A stretch of DNA of 64,000 nucleotides from Escherichia phage EcWhh-1. Position numbers and translations under genes: made by a program. The stretch is from the sequence record MH791409.1. The stretch is one strand, 5' to 3'. The notes under the pieces are model-generated. The model made no database searches. It was given only the letters and a program-made list of their open reading frames with translations, and was not told the DNA's origin. Positions 5,133 to 52,258 of this stretch are shown here, one piece after another; position 1 is the stretch's first letter, and every line of letters begins with the position of its first letter.

Positions 5133-5638
5133 ATTGTTCTCAATTCAATAAAATCTACGAGTTCGGCATAGGATTTGCGGAACATTACTTGGCGGCCACC
5201 AATGACAACCTCATCTTCAGGTATTTCGTAAACAGCAAGATAGAATCCTTTAGAAGATAATTCTTTACGCTCTTCACGAGTGAACCAGCGCATCATATCA
5301 TACTCACTGGCAAAAGCAAAATGGTAGAGGTTAACAAACCAGCCTGGAATATAATCGTCGCAGCCTTCATAATCAGGTCGTTTCCACTTAGTTCTAATGG
5401 TTTTATTAGAATTTTCTACCAGCAACTTATCTTGACTTGGTAGTGGGATATTTTTATTAATGCTATGATGATGTCTAAAAATAGGTCTGTCTAAACCTAC
5501 TTCTAATAACCAGCCTTCACTCCATGAGTCTGTTGTACTTCTATACGGGGTCATTTGGGTACAGAGGTCTCGTCGTATTGTGATAGCGTTTCCATCATCT
5601 AAGATACTGAACGATGACTCAACTCGATAAATTTTCAT
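5129..5638 (-). CDS. hypothetical protein
   Basis: track ORF 169 aa; preceded by promoter cassette and GAGGAG Shine-Dalgarno. Confidence 0.45.
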   Translation of the reverse strand: MKIYRVESSFSILDDGNAITIRRDLCTQMTPYRSTTDSWSEGWLLEVGLDRPIFRHHHSINKNIPLPSQDKLLVENSNKTIRTKWKRPDYEGCDDYIPGWFVNLYHFAFASEYDMMRWFTREERKELSSKGFYLAVYEIPEDEVVIGGRQVMFRKSYAELVDFIELRTI

Positions 5639-5665
5639 TTTGTTCTCCTCATGTTGATAGGGTAG

Positions 5666-5694
5666 ATAATATCATGTCATGAGGAGAAGTAAAC
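5666..5694 (-). promoter_or_regulatory. early-type promoter (GTTTAC, 17 nt, TG-n-TATTAT)
   Basis: minus strand GTTTACTTCTCCTCATGACATGATATTATCTACCCTATCAACATGAGGAG; inverted repeat CTCCTCATG/CATGAGGAG brackets the -10 and the Shine-Dalgarno. Confidence 0.5.
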
Positions 5695-5698
5695 ACTT

Positions 5699-6373
5699 TT
5701 ATCGATTTTTTACACTTAATGGGTCTGGATTCTCAGGAACATCTTCCAGGTTTAAAGCATATCGTTGGGCATATTTCAGCATCAAGATATCCTTAGCACA
5801 GTCATGGATAGAGTCATGGGCTACAAAGCCATTCAATGTTCCGTTAGGCAGAGGGCACATGCTTAATCCACGCGTCAGTGAATAGGCTTCAATGGCCGTG
5901 CGGATATCACGTTGGTTCCAGAATTTAACCGGTTCCAACTTAGTGGTATCGATTTCGTTCTCAGGAACACCTTCAGAACGATAAGCATCGCGAATAAGGT
6001 CCACTAAGATTGGAAAGTCAAAGGACATTCCGCGGCACCACATCTGCGATTTCCATTGGTCCACTTCGTTTTTACGGCAGTATTCCAGGAAATTACCAAT
6101 GCCGATAGAAGTACTCACATCAATTTCGGACGGAGCCAGGTTTTTACGTGCTTCGGGTCCTTGTTCTTTCCACCACTGCAATGTGCTTTTAGAGAACAGA
6201 CGTTTATCGCGTTGAGAAGCCAAATCGAATTTAATACGAAGGCCACGTTGAGTAAGCTCTTCAAACGATTCTACTACCTCTGGATTAGGGTCATAAGCAA
6301 TTACGGCGAGGTCGATAACTGCTGCATTTTGGGTAGTGGCAAAGGTTTCGAAGTCAATAATTATATCTTTCAT
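5699..6373 (-). CDS. dexA: exonuclease A (DnaQ-like 3'-5' exonuclease)
   Basis: 224 aa; MKDIIIDFET...AVIDLAVIAYDPNPEVVE...GMSFDFPILVDLIRD...HDSIHDCAKDILM closely matches remembered T4 DexA. Confidence 0.85.
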   Translation of the reverse strand: MKDIIIDFETFATTQNAAVIDLAVIAYDPNPEVVESFEELTQRGLRIKFDLASQRDKRLFSKSTLQWWKEQGPEARKNLAPSEIDVSTSIGIGNFLEYCRKNEVDQWKSQMWCRGMSFDFPILVDLIRDAYRSEGVPENEIDTTKLEPVKFWNQRDIRTAIEAYSLTRGLSMCPLPNGTLNGFVAHDSIHDCAKDILMLKYAQRYALNLEDVPENPDPLSVKNR

Positions 6374-42994: not shown

Positions 42995-43906
42995 TTATTT
43001 TAGAGCTAATACTGCAGCGCGGAGCTTGTCACGCTGGAGTTCCATGTTCTTGATGCGAATCAATACGTCTTGGATACTCTTTTTCTCATCTTCGATCTGG
43101 CCGTTTAAACGGTGGATTGATTCCTGGAGATGGTCCTCATGATACTTCTCGATAGGTTTCATCGTAGGGTTAGTAACCACCATAGAATTATCAGGTGTAA
43201 TTTTCCAATGATACGGTTTGGAATTGAATGGACTCGGTACAGCCGTGGTTTTGAATTTGTCATAGGCTGCATACTGGCCTACACTGTCACATGATACTGC
43301 AGAGGTAGAGATACGTCGTTCCATTTGTGGGTCCTTTTGTTGGGATTGGTAAGGGGCATAAGACAAAAGATATTCGCGAGTTAGTTTAATTCTGATGTAT
43401 ACTGCATCAGCCAGCCCGGAACATTCTGCGTACTCGTCAGTAGTAACCTTATATGATTCTACAGCCTTAATACGAGCCATTGCTTCTCTGAATAAGGTTT
43501 CAAATGCTTCACGAAGGGCCTTATTACCTTTTGAGGTAGGACGGAAACGAACTTGAACACCATCATCCAAAATATTAATGACCAGGTTACGAGCTGTAAA
43601 ATTAATATTTTTGATATTGACAGGAACCGTAGAAATACGCCCTGCAGTAGCCAATAGGTCTTTGATATTAGCTCGTAATGTTGCACCAAACAGATGGGCC
43701 GGGCTACGGCAATAATCATTCAAAGAGCTGATGTAAGTTCCTTTACGGCCTACACCATAAGTATAATTACCATTACAAATATGACCAAAGTCAGCTAGGC
43801 GGTCAATAGCGATACGACGAGTCGTGTCATGGTCATAGATGGAATATTCTTTACGTGTTTTAATGTTCATATTAAAGTCCAAATAATTTTTCATAGAGTT
43901 TAGCAA
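42995..43906 (-). CDS. hypothetical protein with C-terminal coiled coil
   Basis: 303 aa; ends ...RIKNMELQRDKLRAAVLALK. Confidence 0.5.
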   Translation of the reverse strand: MLNSMKNYLDFNMNIKTRKEYSIYDHDTTRRIAIDRLADFGHICNGNYTYGVGRKGTYISSLNDYCRSPAHLFGATLRANIKDLLATAGRISTVPVNIKNINFTARNLVINILDDGVQVRFRPTSKGNKALREAFETLFREAMARIKAVESYKVTTDEYAECSGLADAVYIRIKLTREYLLSYAPYQSQQKDPQMERRISTSAVSCDSVGQYAAYDKFKTTAVPSPFNSKPYHWKITPDNSMVVTNPTMKPIEKYHEDHLQESIHRLNGQIEDEKKSIQDVLIRIKNMELQRDKLRAAVLALK

Positions 43907-45526: not shown

Positions 45527-45552
45527 GATAACCTCCAGTAGTTGATAGGTCT

Positions 45553-45581
45553 ATAGTATCATTTCTACTGGAGATGTAAAC
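45553..45581 (-). promoter_or_regulatory. early-type promoter cassette
   Basis: minus strand GTTTACATCTCCAGTAGAAATGATACTATAGACCTATCAACTACTGGAGG with inverted repeat CTCCAGTAG/CTACTGGAG. Confidence 0.5.
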
Positions 45582-45583
45582 AA

Positions 45584-45925
45584 CTAATAGAAACTTTTTT
45601 CACCGGATTGACCACTAAACCAAGCGGATTGGGTGTTCTCTTTCCGTTGGTGTTTAATACGAATAAGGTATTCATTCCTGATGGCGCAGAGTTCACCTCG
45701 GAAGTCGCCTGCCAACTTTACCTGCTTACGGTCTAGATTTATTAAGGCCTGAGTCTTAGCGGCCAAGGCCAGTCTCTTGTAGTCTCCTTCTTCACAATCG
45801 GTTTTATAAACCTTTTCGGCGAATTTGTATTTAAATTCATTATCATAGTCCTCGACGGACTGTTTCATGGCATTAGAGTACTTCAACTCTGCTTTTATAA
45901 GGTCGTAACTAAATTGTTCGAACAT
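45584..45925 (-). CDS. hypothetical protein
   Basis: track ORF 113 aa. Confidence 0.4.
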   Translation of the reverse strand: MFEQFSYDLIKAELKYSNAMKQSVEDYDNEFKYKFAEKVYKTDCEEGDYKRLALAAKTQALINLDRKQVKLAGDFRGELCAIRNEYLIRIKHQRKENTQSAWFSGQSGEKSFY

Positions 45926-45935
45926 AATTTCACCT

Positions 45936-46931
45936 TTATTTCAGAAGTGTAACTTCAGCGATTTCGTTCCAGTCATTTTTATCAGTGGCAATGAAGTCCG
46001 CCAGATAAAGAGCTGTACGTAATGATACGTTACGAAGACGAGATACATTAGCCTTCATCCATGCTAAAGCTTGATAAGTCTCAGCATCAGTCAGACCTCG
46101 ATTTTGCATCATATCAGTGGACAGGATAACGTCTTCAACACGAACCATAATCTCTTCGTTCGAGTGAACTCCGAGGTCTAAGTAAACTGAACGAGATACT
46201 AAAGCCTGGAGGTGTGGAGCAAGTTTAGTTCCACGCTCTAATTCACGGTCAATATCAACGTTGGTGATGAACACGATGGTGCCTTCGTATTCGAATTCTT
46301 TATCGATATTTTTATCATCGAGGTAAGAACTTGAAGTGCTCCAGCACACTTTACGTTTTTCACCAGTATCCAATGCTGCTTTTAACAGGTTCAGGATATC
46401 CATATCAGAGAATACATCAACATCATCGATAAGAAGAACACTATTAGGGCCGCGGTTATTCCAAAGCTGCTCGTAAAGACCGATTCCACTAATCTTTCCG
46501 TTGATTGATTTATATTCGATAGTTTCATTTTCGTGGGCATTTTGTAATGCTTTATCCAAAGAATACGTTTTACCAATACCTGCGGCACCAGAGATGATAA
46601 GGGAACGAATTTTACCATCGATGATTCCGTTGGTCATCATGTTCATTACTTTAAAACGTTTGTTGATGCGATGTTTCATTTCTTCAGCGGATTCAGTAAT
46701 CACTACAGGAGCTTCAGTACCTTCCATTTCAACGTCACATTTGAACACCCATACACCACGTTCAACACCATCAATCTGTACGAATACCTTGCCATCACCG
46801 AGGTGAGCTTCGGATTCATGAATTTTATTTGGGAACCAGGTTTTACCTGAACTCATGAACGTACCAGAGATTTCATTACCGCGATAGATACCTTTGTTGA
46901 TTTTGATAGTTAACATTTTATTCTCCTTCAC
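45936..46931 (-). CDS. P-loop (AAA-like) ATPase
   Basis: 331 aa; Walker A ISGAAGIGKTYS, Walker B VLLIDDVDVF, sensor-like FITN. Confidence 0.55.
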   Translation of the reverse strand: MKENKMLTIKINKGIYRGNEISGTFMSSGKTWFPNKIHESEAHLGDGKVFVQIDGVERGVWVFKCDVEMEGTEAPVVITESAEEMKHRINKRFKVMNMMTNGIIDGKIRSLIISGAAGIGKTYSLDKALQNAHENETIEYKSINGKISGIGLYEQLWNNRGPNSVLLIDDVDVFSDMDILNLLKAALDTGEKRKVCWSTSSSYLDDKNIDKEFEYEGTIVFITNVDIDRELERGTKLAPHLQALVSRSVYLDLGVHSNEEIMVRVEDVILSTDMMQNRGLTDAETYQALAWMKANVSRLRNVSLRTALYLADFIATDKNDWNEIAEVTLLK

Positions 46932-46951
46932 TCAGTAGATTTGATAGGTCT

Positions 46952-46980
46952 ATAATAACATGTTTGAAATGGATGTACAC
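46952..46980 (-). promoter_or_regulatory. early-type promoter variant (GTGTAC / TG-n-TATTAT)
   Basis: minus strand GTGTACATCCATTTCAAACATGTTATTATAGACCTATCAAATC. Confidence 0.4.
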
Positions 46981-46982
46981 AC

Positions 46983-47213
46983 TTATTTTGCAATAATTTC
47001 ACAGAAGCCATCTTTATAGCGGGCCCATGTTTCACCATTTACTGTATAAAGAGCAGCTTTACGACCATTAGGCATAACAACTTGTTTACCTTTGTTTTTA
47101 GTTACAGCTTCAATAATTTCGTATTCTTCGGCACGATCAGCTTTAAATGTATCTTCCAGAGCGATCAAGTTAGTAGTGTAAGAACCGTATTTGTAATTTT
47201 TGATAGCGTACAT
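46983..47213 (-). CDS. hypothetical protein
   Basis: track ORF 76 aa. Confidence 0.4.
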   Translation of the reverse strand: MYAIKNYKYGSYTTNLIALEDTFKADRAEEYEIIEAVTKNKGKQVVMPNGRKAALYTVNGETWARYKDGFCEIIAK

Positions 47214-47263
47214 TTTTATATCTCCGTTTGGTTTAAGTTTTCAGCTCTTTAGCTGATAGGTCT

Positions 47264-47291
47264 ATAATAACATGTTTAAAGCAGATGTACA
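47264..47291 (-). promoter_or_regulatory. early-type promoter variant (GTGTAC / TATTAT)
   Basis: near-duplicate of the 46952..46980 cassette: GTGTACATCTGCTTTAAACATGTTATTATAGACCTATCAGC. Confidence 0.4.
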
Positions 47292-47311
47292 CTACTTTTT
47301 TGCACTAAACC

Positions 47312-47333
47312 CAAAAAAGGCCCGAAGGCCTTT
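47312..47333 (-). terminator. rho-independent terminator (symmetric A-run / T-run)
   Basis: AAAAAAGGCCCGAAGGCCTTTT immediately 3' of the stop of 47336..48346. Confidence 0.5.
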
Positions 47334-47335
47334 TA

Positions 47336-48346
47336 TCATTTATAATACGAGTTATGGTTTTCTAGGTAAACCTGCTCAACGAACTTGTCCCAGAACTTCA
47401 TATCTACCTTATCAGGCATACCGTTCTTAGCTGCCCAGATGGCATTGGTTTCGACTTCATCAACTATAGCTTCGAGCTCAGCCTGTACATCTTTAAAAGC
47501 ATGTAGCCCCTGTTTGATTTCAAGGATAAATGGTGCTGTTCGTAAAGGATATTGAAGGTCACCGGTCATATAGATTTCCTTCAACTGATATCCAGCACGA
47601 TAAGCATGGCTCAGAGCTTTCCAGTCAATACCTTCATTAGCTTCAGCCTTACGAGCACGTTCGCCATATTCTGCATCAAGTTTATTCAGAGATTGCTTAA
47701 GCTCGACCAATGACAGAGTAGTTTGGTACTTACGTCCGAGGACAGTATAGAACGTTTGAGGACCTGTTTTCTCGTGGTTATGAAATACCCATTCACAGAA
47801 CTCGTTTTCAGGGAGCCGGTGCTTAATATCTTCTACCTTAGTACGTCGTTGCTTAGTAGAACCATCTTCTTGATAATCAACCCACTGTTCAGGAATCTGG
47901 TTAACGATAGCCAGTACACCACGCAGAGCAGCCAGACGAGAACCCTTAACACCATATTTAGAAGCTTGCTTACGAACGTACCCTAAATAGGCTTTCATGT
48001 TGGTTGTATAGAACCGAGAACGATTGTCTTGGATAAATTTCCATACATCAGGTAAATCAGATTTAACCACCAGTTCAGGTGGAGTATGAATCATGTCCAG
48101 AGCAACTGTTTCGCCATCAGCCGCTAGTTTAAAGAAATATTTCAGGCTGTAAAGCTCGTGGTCGACATCATCTTTAGTGTTTTTGGAAGCAGTGTTATTC
48201 GTGTTCAGGTTGGTATGGTTCATAGCCGTACCTAACAGAATATCACGCGGATGCGGAACAAAGATTTCTTTAAAATCGACATCAGATTCCGGAGTACTTG
48301 TTCCATAAAGGTGGCTACCGAAGTAGCCTTTCATAACTGTTCTCAT
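47336..48346 (-). CDS. Pol-beta-superfamily nucleotidyltransferase-fold protein
   Basis: 336 aa; N-terminal GSHLYGTSTPESDVDFKEIFVP fits the GS-x(9-13)-D-x-D nucleotidyltransferase signature; helical C-terminal half. Confidence 0.5.
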   Translation of the reverse strand: MRTVMKGYFGSHLYGTSTPESDVDFKEIFVPHPRDILLGTAMNHTNLNTNNTASKNTKDDVDHELYSLKYFFKLAADGETVALDMIHTPPELVVKSDLPDVWKFIQDNRSRFYTTNMKAYLGYVRKQASKYGVKGSRLAALRGVLAIVNQIPEQWVDYQEDGSTKQRRTKVEDIKHRLPENEFCEWVFHNHEKTGPQTFYTVLGRKYQTTLSLVELKQSLNKLDAEYGERARKAEANEGIDWKALSHAYRAGYQLKEIYMTGDLQYPLRTAPFILEIKQGLHAFKDVQAELEAIVDEVETNAIWAAKNGMPDKVDMKFWDKFVEQVYLENHNSYYK

Positions 48347-48795
48347 TCTTTATTCTCGAAGTGGATTACAGGGCAGACCTTAGATTTACGAGCTTTGATA
48401 TATTGGATGACAACGTTTTCTTTAGTTTCTCGGCCTTCACGCTCAGCTTGAATACGTTGCCATTCCTTTTCTTCTCTACGGGCATCATACCATGAGTGTA
48501 AATTCATCGCACCGAATGCCAAACCAATGGATAGCGCAATAATAAGAGATATTGCAACCAACCCTAAAACAAACCCGAGACTCAACAGAACAGGGGTACT
48601 TAATACAAAGAAATGCTCTAATACACCAGCACCTGCAACAGTTAATCCAAAAAGCGTACTACCTGCAACAACAGCACAAGCAAAACAAGCCCAAACCATT
48701 TTCCAGAAGTAAGCACACAAAGAGTGTGGTCGAGAATGGCGGTCATAAAAACGGTCGTGTAATTTAACGTGCCAAGAGTTTGTATTGATAATCAT
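48343..48795 (-). CDS. integral membrane protein
   Basis: 150 aa with at least three hydrophobic helices. Confidence 0.45.
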   Translation of the reverse strand: MIINTNSWHVKLHDRFYDRHSRPHSLCAYFWKMVWACFACAVVAGSTLFGLTVAGAGVLEHFFVLSTPVLLSLGFVLGLVAISLIIALSIGLAFGAMNLHSWYDARREEKEWQRIQAEREGRETKENVVIQYIKARKSKVCPVIHFENKE

Positions 48796-48804
48796 AATAT
48801 TTCC

Positions 48805-49365
48805 TTAAGAGTTCATAGTTGGGATAACAGAGTTCAGATAAGAGACTAAAGCTTTGAGCTCGTCCTTAGTAAATACCACTTCATTTTCACCGTCGTGTCT
48901 TTGGGTCAAGGATAGCAAATCACGACCCTGATGTTGATACACAGACAATTCGGTGTCATAATCCATTTCTTCTTCATCACCTTCAAAGGTTTCACTAGAA
49001 CGAATTACCGCATCTTGGCCAGGGACTTTCCATTCAACTTCTGGATGGCATTCTTCCTGGAACAGTTTAAAAATATATTTAAAGAAATTAGCAGAATCAC
49101 TAATGCTTAGACATTCCCCATCCGTTTCCAAATTAAACCCGTTGTCATGGTTATAAATCTGGGCCCACATATCATCGTTAATATTAAATACACCTCTAAA
49201 ACTACCATTAAGATATTGGTGTTTGTCCAAAACCTTTAAATCGTAAAGTGGTTTGATATCTTGGATAGTCAGTACGATTTTATCGTCTTCTTGTGAAAGC
49301 ACAATTGCATTATCAACTACTTCAGCGGTCAGGTCACCAAACAACCCAGATGTTTCAATAATCAT
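48805..49365 (-). CDS. hypothetical acidic protein
   Basis: track ORF 186 aa. Confidence 0.45.
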   Translation of the reverse strand: MIIETSGLFGDLTAEVVDNAIVLSQEDDKIVLTIQDIKPLYDLKVLDKHQYLNGSFRGVFNINDDMWAQIYNHDNGFNLETDGECLSISDSANFFKYIFKLFQEECHPEVEWKVPGQDAVIRSSETFEGDEEEMDYDTELSVYQHQGRDLLSLTQRHDGENEVVFTKDELKALVSYLNSVIPTMNS

Positions 49366-51685: not shown

Positions 51686-52258
51686 TCAACTCGTTATTTC
51701 TATCCAGTGCTTCCTGCACAATGACACGTAAGAATCGTTGCCACCTATAGAAACTTGGGCTCCGTCCTTAATTGCGATACCATCTTGGATACGAGCCGTC
51801 ATAGTAGCTTTACGGCCGCAATGGCACACACCTTTGTACTCAACGAGTTTATCTGCCGTAGCGAGTAATTCAGCAGAGCCAGGAAACAGTTTACCCTGAA
51901 AATCAGTTCTTAGTCCATAGCACATAACTGGAACATTATAATTGTCTACTATCTTTGCCAGTTGTTTTATCTGTACAGGTTCTAAGAATTGTGCTTCATC
52001 CACAAACACACAGTGGATATCTTTTTGAGATTCAGCCCAACGATAGAACTCGTATAGGTCCATATCCGGAGTCACTGCATTAGCCTCTTGGCTAATCCCT
52101 ATACGAGATGAAATGCTATGGCTTGATTCTCTATTGTCTATCGCAGGCTTTAAAAGGAGTACGCCCATACCACGTTCTTTGTAGTTATGAGCGGCTGTTA
52201 GCAATGAAGCGGTCTTCCCGGAATTCATTGCTGCGTAGTGAAAATAAAGTTGGGCCAT
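51686..52258 (-). CDS. tk: thymidine kinase
   Basis: 190 aa; MAQLYFHYAAMNSGKTASLL (P-loop), VDEAQF, CYGLRTDFQG, zinc ribbon C.CGRKA...VSLCRKH; matches the TK family. Confidence 0.9.
   Translation of the reverse strand: MAQLYFHYAAMNSGKTASLLTAAHNYKERGMGVLLLKPAIDNRESSHSISSRIGISQEANAVTPDMDLYEFYRWAESQKDIHCVFVDEAQFLEPVQIKQLAKIVDNYNVPVMCYGLRTDFQGKLFPGSAELLATADKLVEYKGVCHCGRKATMTARIQDGIAIKDGAQVSIGGNDSYVSLCRKHWIEITS

Follow-up and report, generated by a model that had tools for sequence, protein, structure and literature searches.

The window analysed here is a 64,000-nucleotide (nt) stretch of DNA from Escherichia phage EcWhh-1 (sequence record MH791409.1), and the subject of the analysis is a 336-amino-acid (aa) nucleotidyltransferase (NTase) encoded in it at 47336..48346, together with the ATPase encoded two genes downstream. 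A 4-kb stretch of this region is 93-95% identical to JS98, JS10, UP19, IME08 and related phages of the genus Dhakavirus (Straboviridae). The window is that of a T4-type phage of the JS98/JS10 kind, the 336-aa open reading frame (ORF) is nrdC.11, and the ATPase ORF is nrdC.10. Both genes lie between nrdC and tk in JS10, where nrdC.11 is annotated as "nucleotidyltransferase" and nrdC.10 as "hypothetical protein", and the gene order of the block in the window, with tk at 51686..52258, matches that of JS10. An earlier interpretation made from the letters and ORFs of the window (hereafter, the sequence-only reading) placed the two genes correctly in an nrdC-tk block but did not recognise them as the named T4 genes. 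The NTase gene is already known, as an annotated orthologue of T4 nrdC.11 whose family has been described. When T4-like genomes were compared in 2006, the COG3541 nucleotidyltransferase domain was assigned to nrdC.11, and nrdC.10 was placed in the AAA family (PMC1524935). The encoded protein shares 99% aa identity with its JS98 orthologue, about 84% with the T2 type and about 70% with the other T-even types. In GenBank phage records, many orthologues of both genes are named 'thioredoxin'; neither protein has thioredoxin similarity, and these labels are apparently an error propagated from the nrdC.x gene names.

Around nrdC.11, coding is entirely on the minus strand. In the direction of transcription, a mobD.1 or y05I-like gene (48805..49365; Pfam T4_y05I_N and T4_y05I_C) is followed by the gene for a 150-aa membrane protein of phrog_944 (48343..48795), the stop codon of which overlaps the start of nrdC.11 as ATGA; a second in-frame ATG of nrdC.11 lies at 48334, 12 nt downstream of the first. 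An intrinsic terminator (47315..47334), with a perfect 8-bp stem and a TTCG loop (AAAAGGCC-TTCG-GGCCTTTT) followed by a T-run, begins 3 nt after the nrdC.11 stop codon. Thus, both the terminator of its own and the flanking membrane protein that the sequence-only reading had attributed to the NTase gene are in place. Between nrdC.11 and nrdC.10 (45936..46916), a 76-aa ORF of phrog_33156 (46983..47213) is inserted, with one copy of an early-promoter-like repeat upstream of this ORF (47259..47292; GTGTACATCTGCTTTAAACATGTTATTATAGACC) and a second copy directly upstream of nrdC.10 (46947..46980). Beyond nrdC.10 come DUF7203, nrdC.8-like and nrdC.6-like genes. Recent Pfam families for T4 proteins matched at three places on the same strand: the y05I-like putative transcription factor (the mobD.1 gene at 48805..49365), DUF7203 (45584..45925) and DUF7235 (42995..43906).

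The N terminus of NrdC.11 reads MRTVMKGYFGSHLYGTSTPESDVDFKEIFVP, in which G10-S11, 10 further residues and D22-V-D24 fit the Pol-beta pattern hG[GS]x9-13Dx[DE]. The Pfam RlaP family (PF10127, "RNA repair pathway DNA polymerase beta family") matches the protein with E=5.5e-10 and 39.8 bits against a gathering cut-off of 23, phrog_388 ('nucleotidyltransferase') matches with E=6e-133, and a precomputed PF10127 hit is recorded for all close homologues. The family includes 3,090 representatives at 50% identity with E <= 1e-3, 780 of them with E <= 1e-30, all matching over the full length. In an alignment of 141 homologues, 33-84% identical to the query, G10, S21, D22, D24, Y131, H247, R250 and P267 are invariant, and S11, D60, D62, D84 and several basic residues are conserved in at least 90% of the sequences. 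Given the RlaP and phrog_388 scores and the invariant G10, S21, D22 and D24, a chance match of the GS…DxD motif is ruled out. The likely catalytic residues are D22, D24 and D62. An NCBIfam search returned nothing useful, and searches of the Protein Data Bank (PDB) with single sequences and profiles of both NrdC.11 and NrdC.10 returned nothing significant.

The AlphaFold2 model of NrdC.11 is of high confidence (predicted local distance difference test score, pLDDT, 95.3; predicted template modelling score, pTM, 0.85) and consists of an alpha/beta NTase core at the N terminus, a helical region with a beta-rich interruption, and a long C-terminal helix. D62 is located on the strand formed by residues 61-67, and the beta-rich segment spans residues ~154-208 (window ~47723..47887). 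In the model, NrdC.11 has the Pol-beta nucleotidyltransferase fold, and structure comparison confirms this assignment. Among the matches listed, the closest solved structure is HalB of the Hailong system (PDB 9dbh/9dbj; 14% identity across 161 aligned residues); Tam41 and MNT match with Foldseek E values of 0.07-0.3. The sequence-only reading had picked out the GS...D.D signature in this ORF, proposed an NTase fold, and named loss of the catalytic aspartates or a different predicted fold as what would overturn the proposal. The signature is present, the catalytic aspartates are conserved, and the predicted fold is that of an NTase, so this part of the reading stands.

The characterised relatives of NrdC.11 are canonical RlaP proteins. 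A December 2025 preprint (PMC12776372; Carruthers et al. 2025) describes two of these, PfRlaP and PaRlaP, from Pseudomonas RtcB operons. According to the same source, these enzymes add 1-2 nucleoside monophosphates to RNA 3'-OH ends, prefer Mn2+, act on the 5' half of a cleaved tRNA in preference to the acceptor end, and are inactive on DNA and protein, leaving Escherichia coli proteins unlabelled. The authors propose that RlaP restores, before ligation, the nucleotides taken by "smart" ribotoxins such as RloC (PMC12776372). We compared the NrdC.11-type alignment with 15 canonical RlaPs using hhalign, which pairs the GS and DxD motifs of the two groups with each other and places D62 opposite the third, invariant Asp of the canonical proteins. 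The two groups thus share a catalytic core, with D22, D24 and D62 as the likely triad. A K-x3-[HY]-x2-R motif, seen by eye in the C-terminal regions of both groups, is suggestive only. NrdC.11 is placed in a divergent, NrdC.11-type branch of RlaP. Among deposited phages, this type is found in 1,503 records and canonical RlaP in 86, all of the latter from jumbo and other large phages and none from T4-like ones, so that the NrdC.11 type is ~17 times commoner and is the only class carried by T4-like phages.

To characterise the genomic context of the NrdC.11-type branch, we assembled 80 viral and 80 cellular loci with NTase relatives at 33-99% identity, called ORFs, clustered the neighbours and checked cluster representatives against Pfam. 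The cellular loci come from many phyla, and the counts for them are lower bounds, as 30 of the 80 have less than 3 kb of flanking sequence on one side. Among genes up to 10 kb from the NTase, canonical RlaP (a 253-bit match to PF10127) is encoded in 27 of the 80 cellular loci, RtcB in 10, bacterial Pnkp (kinase-phosphatase-ligase) in 10, Hen1 in nine and Ro60/TROVE in five. At least one of RtcB, Pnkp, Hen1 and Ro60 is present in 19 loci, and 37 loci contain canonical RlaP, one or more of these four, or both. Searches of the loci with JS10 Rnl1 and Pnkp as queries yielded additional cases, which were confirmed by Pfam. A 4-kb contig from a Bathyarchaeota metagenome-assembled genome (MAG) carries a tight same-strand row (L084:62-3803) of the NTase, a 130-aa ORF, a T4-type Pnkp (AAA_33 plus HAD_PNKP), a 143-aa ORF and a T4 Rnl1-type ligase, which would amount to a complete T4-style heal-fill-seal cassette. 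Elsewhere, Rnl2-like and Rnl1 genes lie upstream of the NTase (L064), Pnkp is encoded 1.3 kb downstream (L076), or a Pnkp phosphatase domain is encoded 18 nt upstream, with RtcB about 2 kb away (L114). From these counts and individual loci, it follows that the RNA-repair association characteristic of RlaP holds for the NrdC.11-type branch itself.

In 25 of the 80 cellular loci, canonical RlaP is encoded in the same orientation immediately downstream of the NrdC.11-type NTase, and the two genes commonly overlap by 4 nt (L085, L089, L092, L098, L105, L118, L130, L142, L143, L146, L155 and L157 are among the examples). The order, with the NTase first, is constant over 17 lineages defined at 70% NTase identity. 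The overlap, found inside Pnkp/Hen1 or RtcB clusters, suggests translational coupling. We found no mention of this tandem pairing in the RlaP preprint (PMC12776372). Two loci that are nominally bacterial, one on a contig assigned to Flagellimonas marina (L082) and one on a contig of a Bacilli MAG (L083), show a T4-like gene order around the NTase (rI.-1-like, tk and NadR/Nudix-like genes); both seem to be phage sequence that is contained in bacterial assemblies or was binned with them.

T4 is the source of the first RNA-repair pathway to be found, in which Pnkp and Rnl1 undo the damage inflicted by PrrC. JS10, the nearest annotated relative of the phage studied here, encodes pseT (Pnkp), rnlA (Rnl1) and stp, and therefore possesses the classical T4 tRNA healing-and-sealing pathway. 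We consider it fairly probable that NrdC.11 adds nucleotides to RNA 3' ends in phage tRNA repair, alongside Pnkp and Rnl1; the NrdC.11-type branch as a whole would then have the same activity as the canonical enzymes. It would probably act on a 3' end left by a break within a damaged tRNA, and not on the CCA end in particular. Under this proposal, host anticodon nucleases would cleave tRNAs during infection, some of them, such as RloC, also excising a nucleotide; phage Pnkp (pseT) would heal the broken ends to 3'-OH and 5'-phosphate; NrdC.11, using D22, D24, D62 and divalent metal ions, would extend the 5' fragment at its 3'-OH by one or a few untemplated nucleotides; and Rnl1 (rnlA) would seal the break. 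The product of RlaP fits Rnl1 in that it bears a 3'-OH, which is what a ligase joining 5'-phosphate to 3'-OH needs.

Several observations weigh against this assignment. The Pfam RlaP match covers only residues 8-134 of NrdC.11, that is, model positions 25-142 of 249, and the hhalign match to canonical RlaP extends over 84 N-terminal columns only, within the first ~90 residues (probability 52%, E=1.5e-4). The C-terminal two-thirds of NrdC.11, presumably the substrate-binding region, appears to differ from that of canonical RlaP beyond sequence recognition. In the sequence similarity network of PF10127, T4 NrdC.11 falls in cluster 5, as opposed to cluster 1a for canonical RlaP, and it is labelled 'RlaP of unknown function' (PMC12776372). 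HalB, the closest solved structure, makes DNA oligomers and does not repair RNA. In JS10, pseT and rnlA are about 90 kb away from nrdC.11, and there is no local linkage of these genes in T4-like phages. T4 tolerates deletion of the block from nrdC.11 to mobD.3 in the laboratory (PMC9825161), a dispensability that fits a conditional, counter-defence function. Finally, the tandem pairs suggest an activity distinct from that of canonical RlaP, because a canonical RlaP gene placed immediately downstream, often overlapping, points to a complementary rather than a redundant role for the NrdC.11-type enzyme. Given this pairing and the divergence of the branch, its exact activity could differ from that of canonical RlaP. 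The NrdC.11-type enzymes might, for example, carry out a separate step, such as choosing or restricting the nucleotide to be restored, or act on another end or substrate. That they form a functionally distinct partner class of RlaP, with the phage version serving as a stand-alone countermeasure to nucleotide-excising anticodon nucleases such as RloC, seems to us doubtful but worth considering.

The sequence-only reading had offered three functions for the protein: repair of tRNA 3' ends, synthesis or mimicry of nucleotide second messengers, and nucleotidylation of a host defence protein. Only the first is supported, insofar as the RlaP family and the RNA-repair neighbourhoods point to repair of RNA or tRNA ends, but the CCA end specifically is not the likely target. 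If NrdC.11 restored or matured CCA ends, topping up trimmed acceptor ends of host or phage tRNAs, the chemistry, addition to an RNA 3'-OH, would be the same as that proposed above, and canonical RlaPs do label full-length tRNAs and single-stranded RNA 3' ends in vitro (PMC12776372). However, no CCA-adding family matches NrdC.11 in Pfam (NTP_transf_2 scores E=0.077 and 13.8 bits, below its cut-off of 21, and PolyA_pol gives no hit), the healing and sealing enzymes of the neighbourhoods (Pnkp, Hen1, RtcB and Rnl1) serve internal breaks rather than CCA ends, canonical RlaP prefers the cleaved 5' half, and no tRNA genes were found in the window. We regard CCA-end repair as unlikely. Modification of a protein or small molecule, in the manner of the AMPylating MNT, DrrA and GlnE or the antibiotic-modifying ANT and LinB, for instance to neutralise a host toxin, is quite unlikely: the MntA model NF047752 scores 13.1 bits against a cut-off of 60, the neighbours of the gene are the membrane protein and the 76-aa ORF rather than a HEPN gene, canonical RlaPs leave E. 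coli proteins unlabelled, and the neighbourhood evidence points to RNA repair. The proposed nucleotidylation of a host protein accordingly finds no backing in these comparisons.

The second-messenger proposal fares no better. An enzyme of the HalB or CD-NTase kind could produce an oligonucleotide or nucleotide signal, for example decoy oligonucleotides that keep a host defence effector off. HalB being the closest solved structure might be taken to favour such a function, but the similarity is distant, and no better than expected among generic minimal NTases. Pfam shows no CD-NTase hit for NrdC.11, PADLOC has no hit for either the NTase or the membrane protein, and none of cGAS, DncV and OAS is among the 50-60 listed fold matches of the model. 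The membrane protein (phrog_944, cluster 2 among the neighbours) occurs in 42 viral and 0 cellular loci, and its pairing with the NTase is confined to T4-like synteny; the cellular neighbourhoods of the NTase are RNA-repair clusters, not defence islands. Synthesis of a signal is, in our estimate, very unlikely. An analogy of the membrane protein and NTase pair with HalA and HalB was likewise considered and rejected, as the pairing exists only in T4-like synteny and the HalB similarity is generic.

NrdC.10 is encoded by the second gene downstream of the NTase, in an ORF (45936..46931) that contains the sequences GAAGIGKTY and LLIDDVD, as noted in the sequence-only reading. The most likely start is the ATG at 46916, because it is preceded by an AAGGAG ribosome-binding site and yields a protein of 326 aa, the length found in all homologues. 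Among 51 homologues (numbering of the 326-aa form), G110, G113, G115, K116, T117, D164, D165, N219, R242, R295 and R300 are invariant, and the mean column identity is 62%, so that the protein is highly conserved in T4-like phages. The motifs comprise Walker A (GAAGIGKT), Walker B (DDVD), sensor-1 (FITN, with Asn219), an SRS arginine (R242) and R295/R300, and the N-terminal residues 1-65 form a beta-rich domain (model pLDDT 89.6). Its AAA+ core, with a lid domain, bears Walker A and B, sensor-1, arginine-finger and sensor-2 motifs, and NrdC.10 is a genuine AAA+ ATPase, in line with the AAA-like ATPase of the sequence-only reading. Pfam AAA models all remained below their cut-offs (AAA_14 at 25.0 and AAA_22 at 23.5 bits, both against 27), and PADLOC gave only sub-threshold P-loop matches.

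The proximity of the two genes, to which the sequence-only reading had drawn attention, could imply that NrdC.11 and NrdC.10 act together as a system of an NTase plus an AAA+ protein. In 36 of the 80 viral NTase loci and in 40 of 80 NrdC.10 loci, the genes share strand and order and lie 22-2,269 nt apart, and one distant NrdC.10-like lineage has an Rnl2-type RNA ligase gene at a distance of 1.8 kb. A joint function is largely refuted by the phyletic and positional data, and we rate it as most improbable. Only those 40 of the 80 NrdC.10 loci have the NTase nearby; NrdC.10 is within 10 kb of the NTase in none of the 80 cellular loci, and the 36 viral loci are all T4-like, with adjacency only where the overall T4-like gene order is conserved anyway. 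In three phages (L003, L004 and L079, the NTase being 97% identical), nrdC.10 is cleanly absent without a remnant while the surrounding genes are kept, and in four phage contigs carrying both genes these are about 35-112 kb apart. Host counts for the deposited phages differ as well, with 285 nrdC.11 versus 149 nrdC.10 for Klebsiella and 55 versus 121 for Vibrio. In the window itself, the terminator, the two promoter-like elements and the inserted ORF separate the genes. The adjacency reflects gene order conserved in part of the T4-like phages and lost elsewhere, and the implied pairing does not hold; nrdC.10 is a gene in its own right, present in some relatives and absent from others, with a promoter-like element of its own, and lies outside the NrdC.11 pathway.

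The searches performed here detected the NrdC.10 family solely in phages and phage-like contigs. One set of distant phage contigs (L221-L233; for example, L230:1727-2752) encodes the NrdC.10-like ATPase about 1.1 kb upstream of a UvsW-like helicase gene with an intein (Hint domain). In another set (L236-L241, with L237:2561-3445 and 5265-6362 as an example), the gene for an Rnl2-type RNA ligase (PF09414) follows 1.8 kb downstream of a distant NrdC.10-like AAA+ gene with 26% identity; these six contigs are nearly identical and count as one observation. Assigning a role to NrdC.10 from its neighbours in distant phages was considered and set aside, as only the UvsW-like helicase, in one group, and the Rnl2-type ligase, in the near-clonal six-contig group, recur.

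The terminator after nrdC.11 belongs with the promoter-like repeats. In relatives, the stem differs in sequence and still pairs (GGAACC/GGTTCC in VR5 and GGGAGCC/GGCTCCC in a T2-like phage), with the same TTCG loop, and these compensatory changes support a genuine terminator. The promoter-like element, ~34 nt long, consists of GTGTACA, 16 nt and TGtTATTAT and resembles a sigma-70 or T4 early promoter; it has two matches in the window and none in shuffled sequences, and a third, weaker copy precedes the nrdC.8-like gene at 45543..45608. The 76-aa ORF is present together with both promoter copies in JS98 and in the window and is unannotated in JS10, whereas VR5 has one terminator and one promoter copy without the ORF, which the VR5-type relatives likewise lack. 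Cassettes of a terminator plus an early promoter (PeSL) have been described as mediating gene shuffling in T4-type phages (PMC2839356, PMC4122927). The nrdC.11 terminator is the stem-loop half of such a PeSL-type mobile regulatory cassette and is not special to the NTase. A possible MotA middle promoter, suggested by TGCTTTA in the first promoter copy, was rejected, since TGCTTTA lies too close to the best -10 hexamer and the second copy has no such box.

As the gene is known, the window contributes only another orthologue. The idea that phages fill in lost nucleotides reportedly goes back to Burroughs and Aravind in 2016, as the authors of a review on jumbo phages credit it. The review itself makes the same prediction for phage RlaPs, and the nucleotide fill-in idea for NrdC.11 is already in the literature (Carruthers et al. 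2025). The modest new points are that the NrdC.11-type branch itself occurs in RNA-repair clusters, that it forms conserved tandem pairs with canonical RlaP, and that the neighbouring AAA+ gene is unrelated; to these we add the high-confidence model of a Pol-beta fold, with HalB as the closest solved structure among those listed, and the assignment of D22, D24 and D62 as likely catalytic residues. NrdC.11, carried in about 1,500 sequenced phage records, is an obvious candidate for the fill-in step against nucleases that, like RloC, also remove a nucleotide.

Compared with known systems, NrdC.10 does not stand out as a member of any single AAA+ group among MoxR (NorQ/CbbQ), sigma-54 activators, DnaA/Hda, ORC/Cdc6 and RFC, relative to all of which its N-terminal beta-rich domain is unique. 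For NrdC.11, nothing substantial differs from T4 NrdC.11 and the JS98 and JS10 orthologues (RefSeq 'nucleotidyltransferase', for example YP_002922438.1), which are equal in length to the window gene product and are encoded in the same slot, between mobD.1 or the membrane protein gene and nrdC.10. HalB is a 217-aa protein that forms a tetramer, primes on its own tyrosine, produces oligo-dA and has the ion channel HalA as its partner, and none of these features was found for NrdC.11. Shared with canonical RlaP are a Pol-beta NTase core containing GS, DxD and a third Asp, the succession of an NTase domain and a helical domain, and the company of RNA ligase and other RNA-repair genes. Proteins of the NrdC.11 type exceed the canonical ones by about 60-70 aa, an excess roughly accounted for by the extra beta-rich segment of the model, and in bacteria they do not replace canonical RlaP but are encoded alongside and directly upstream of it.

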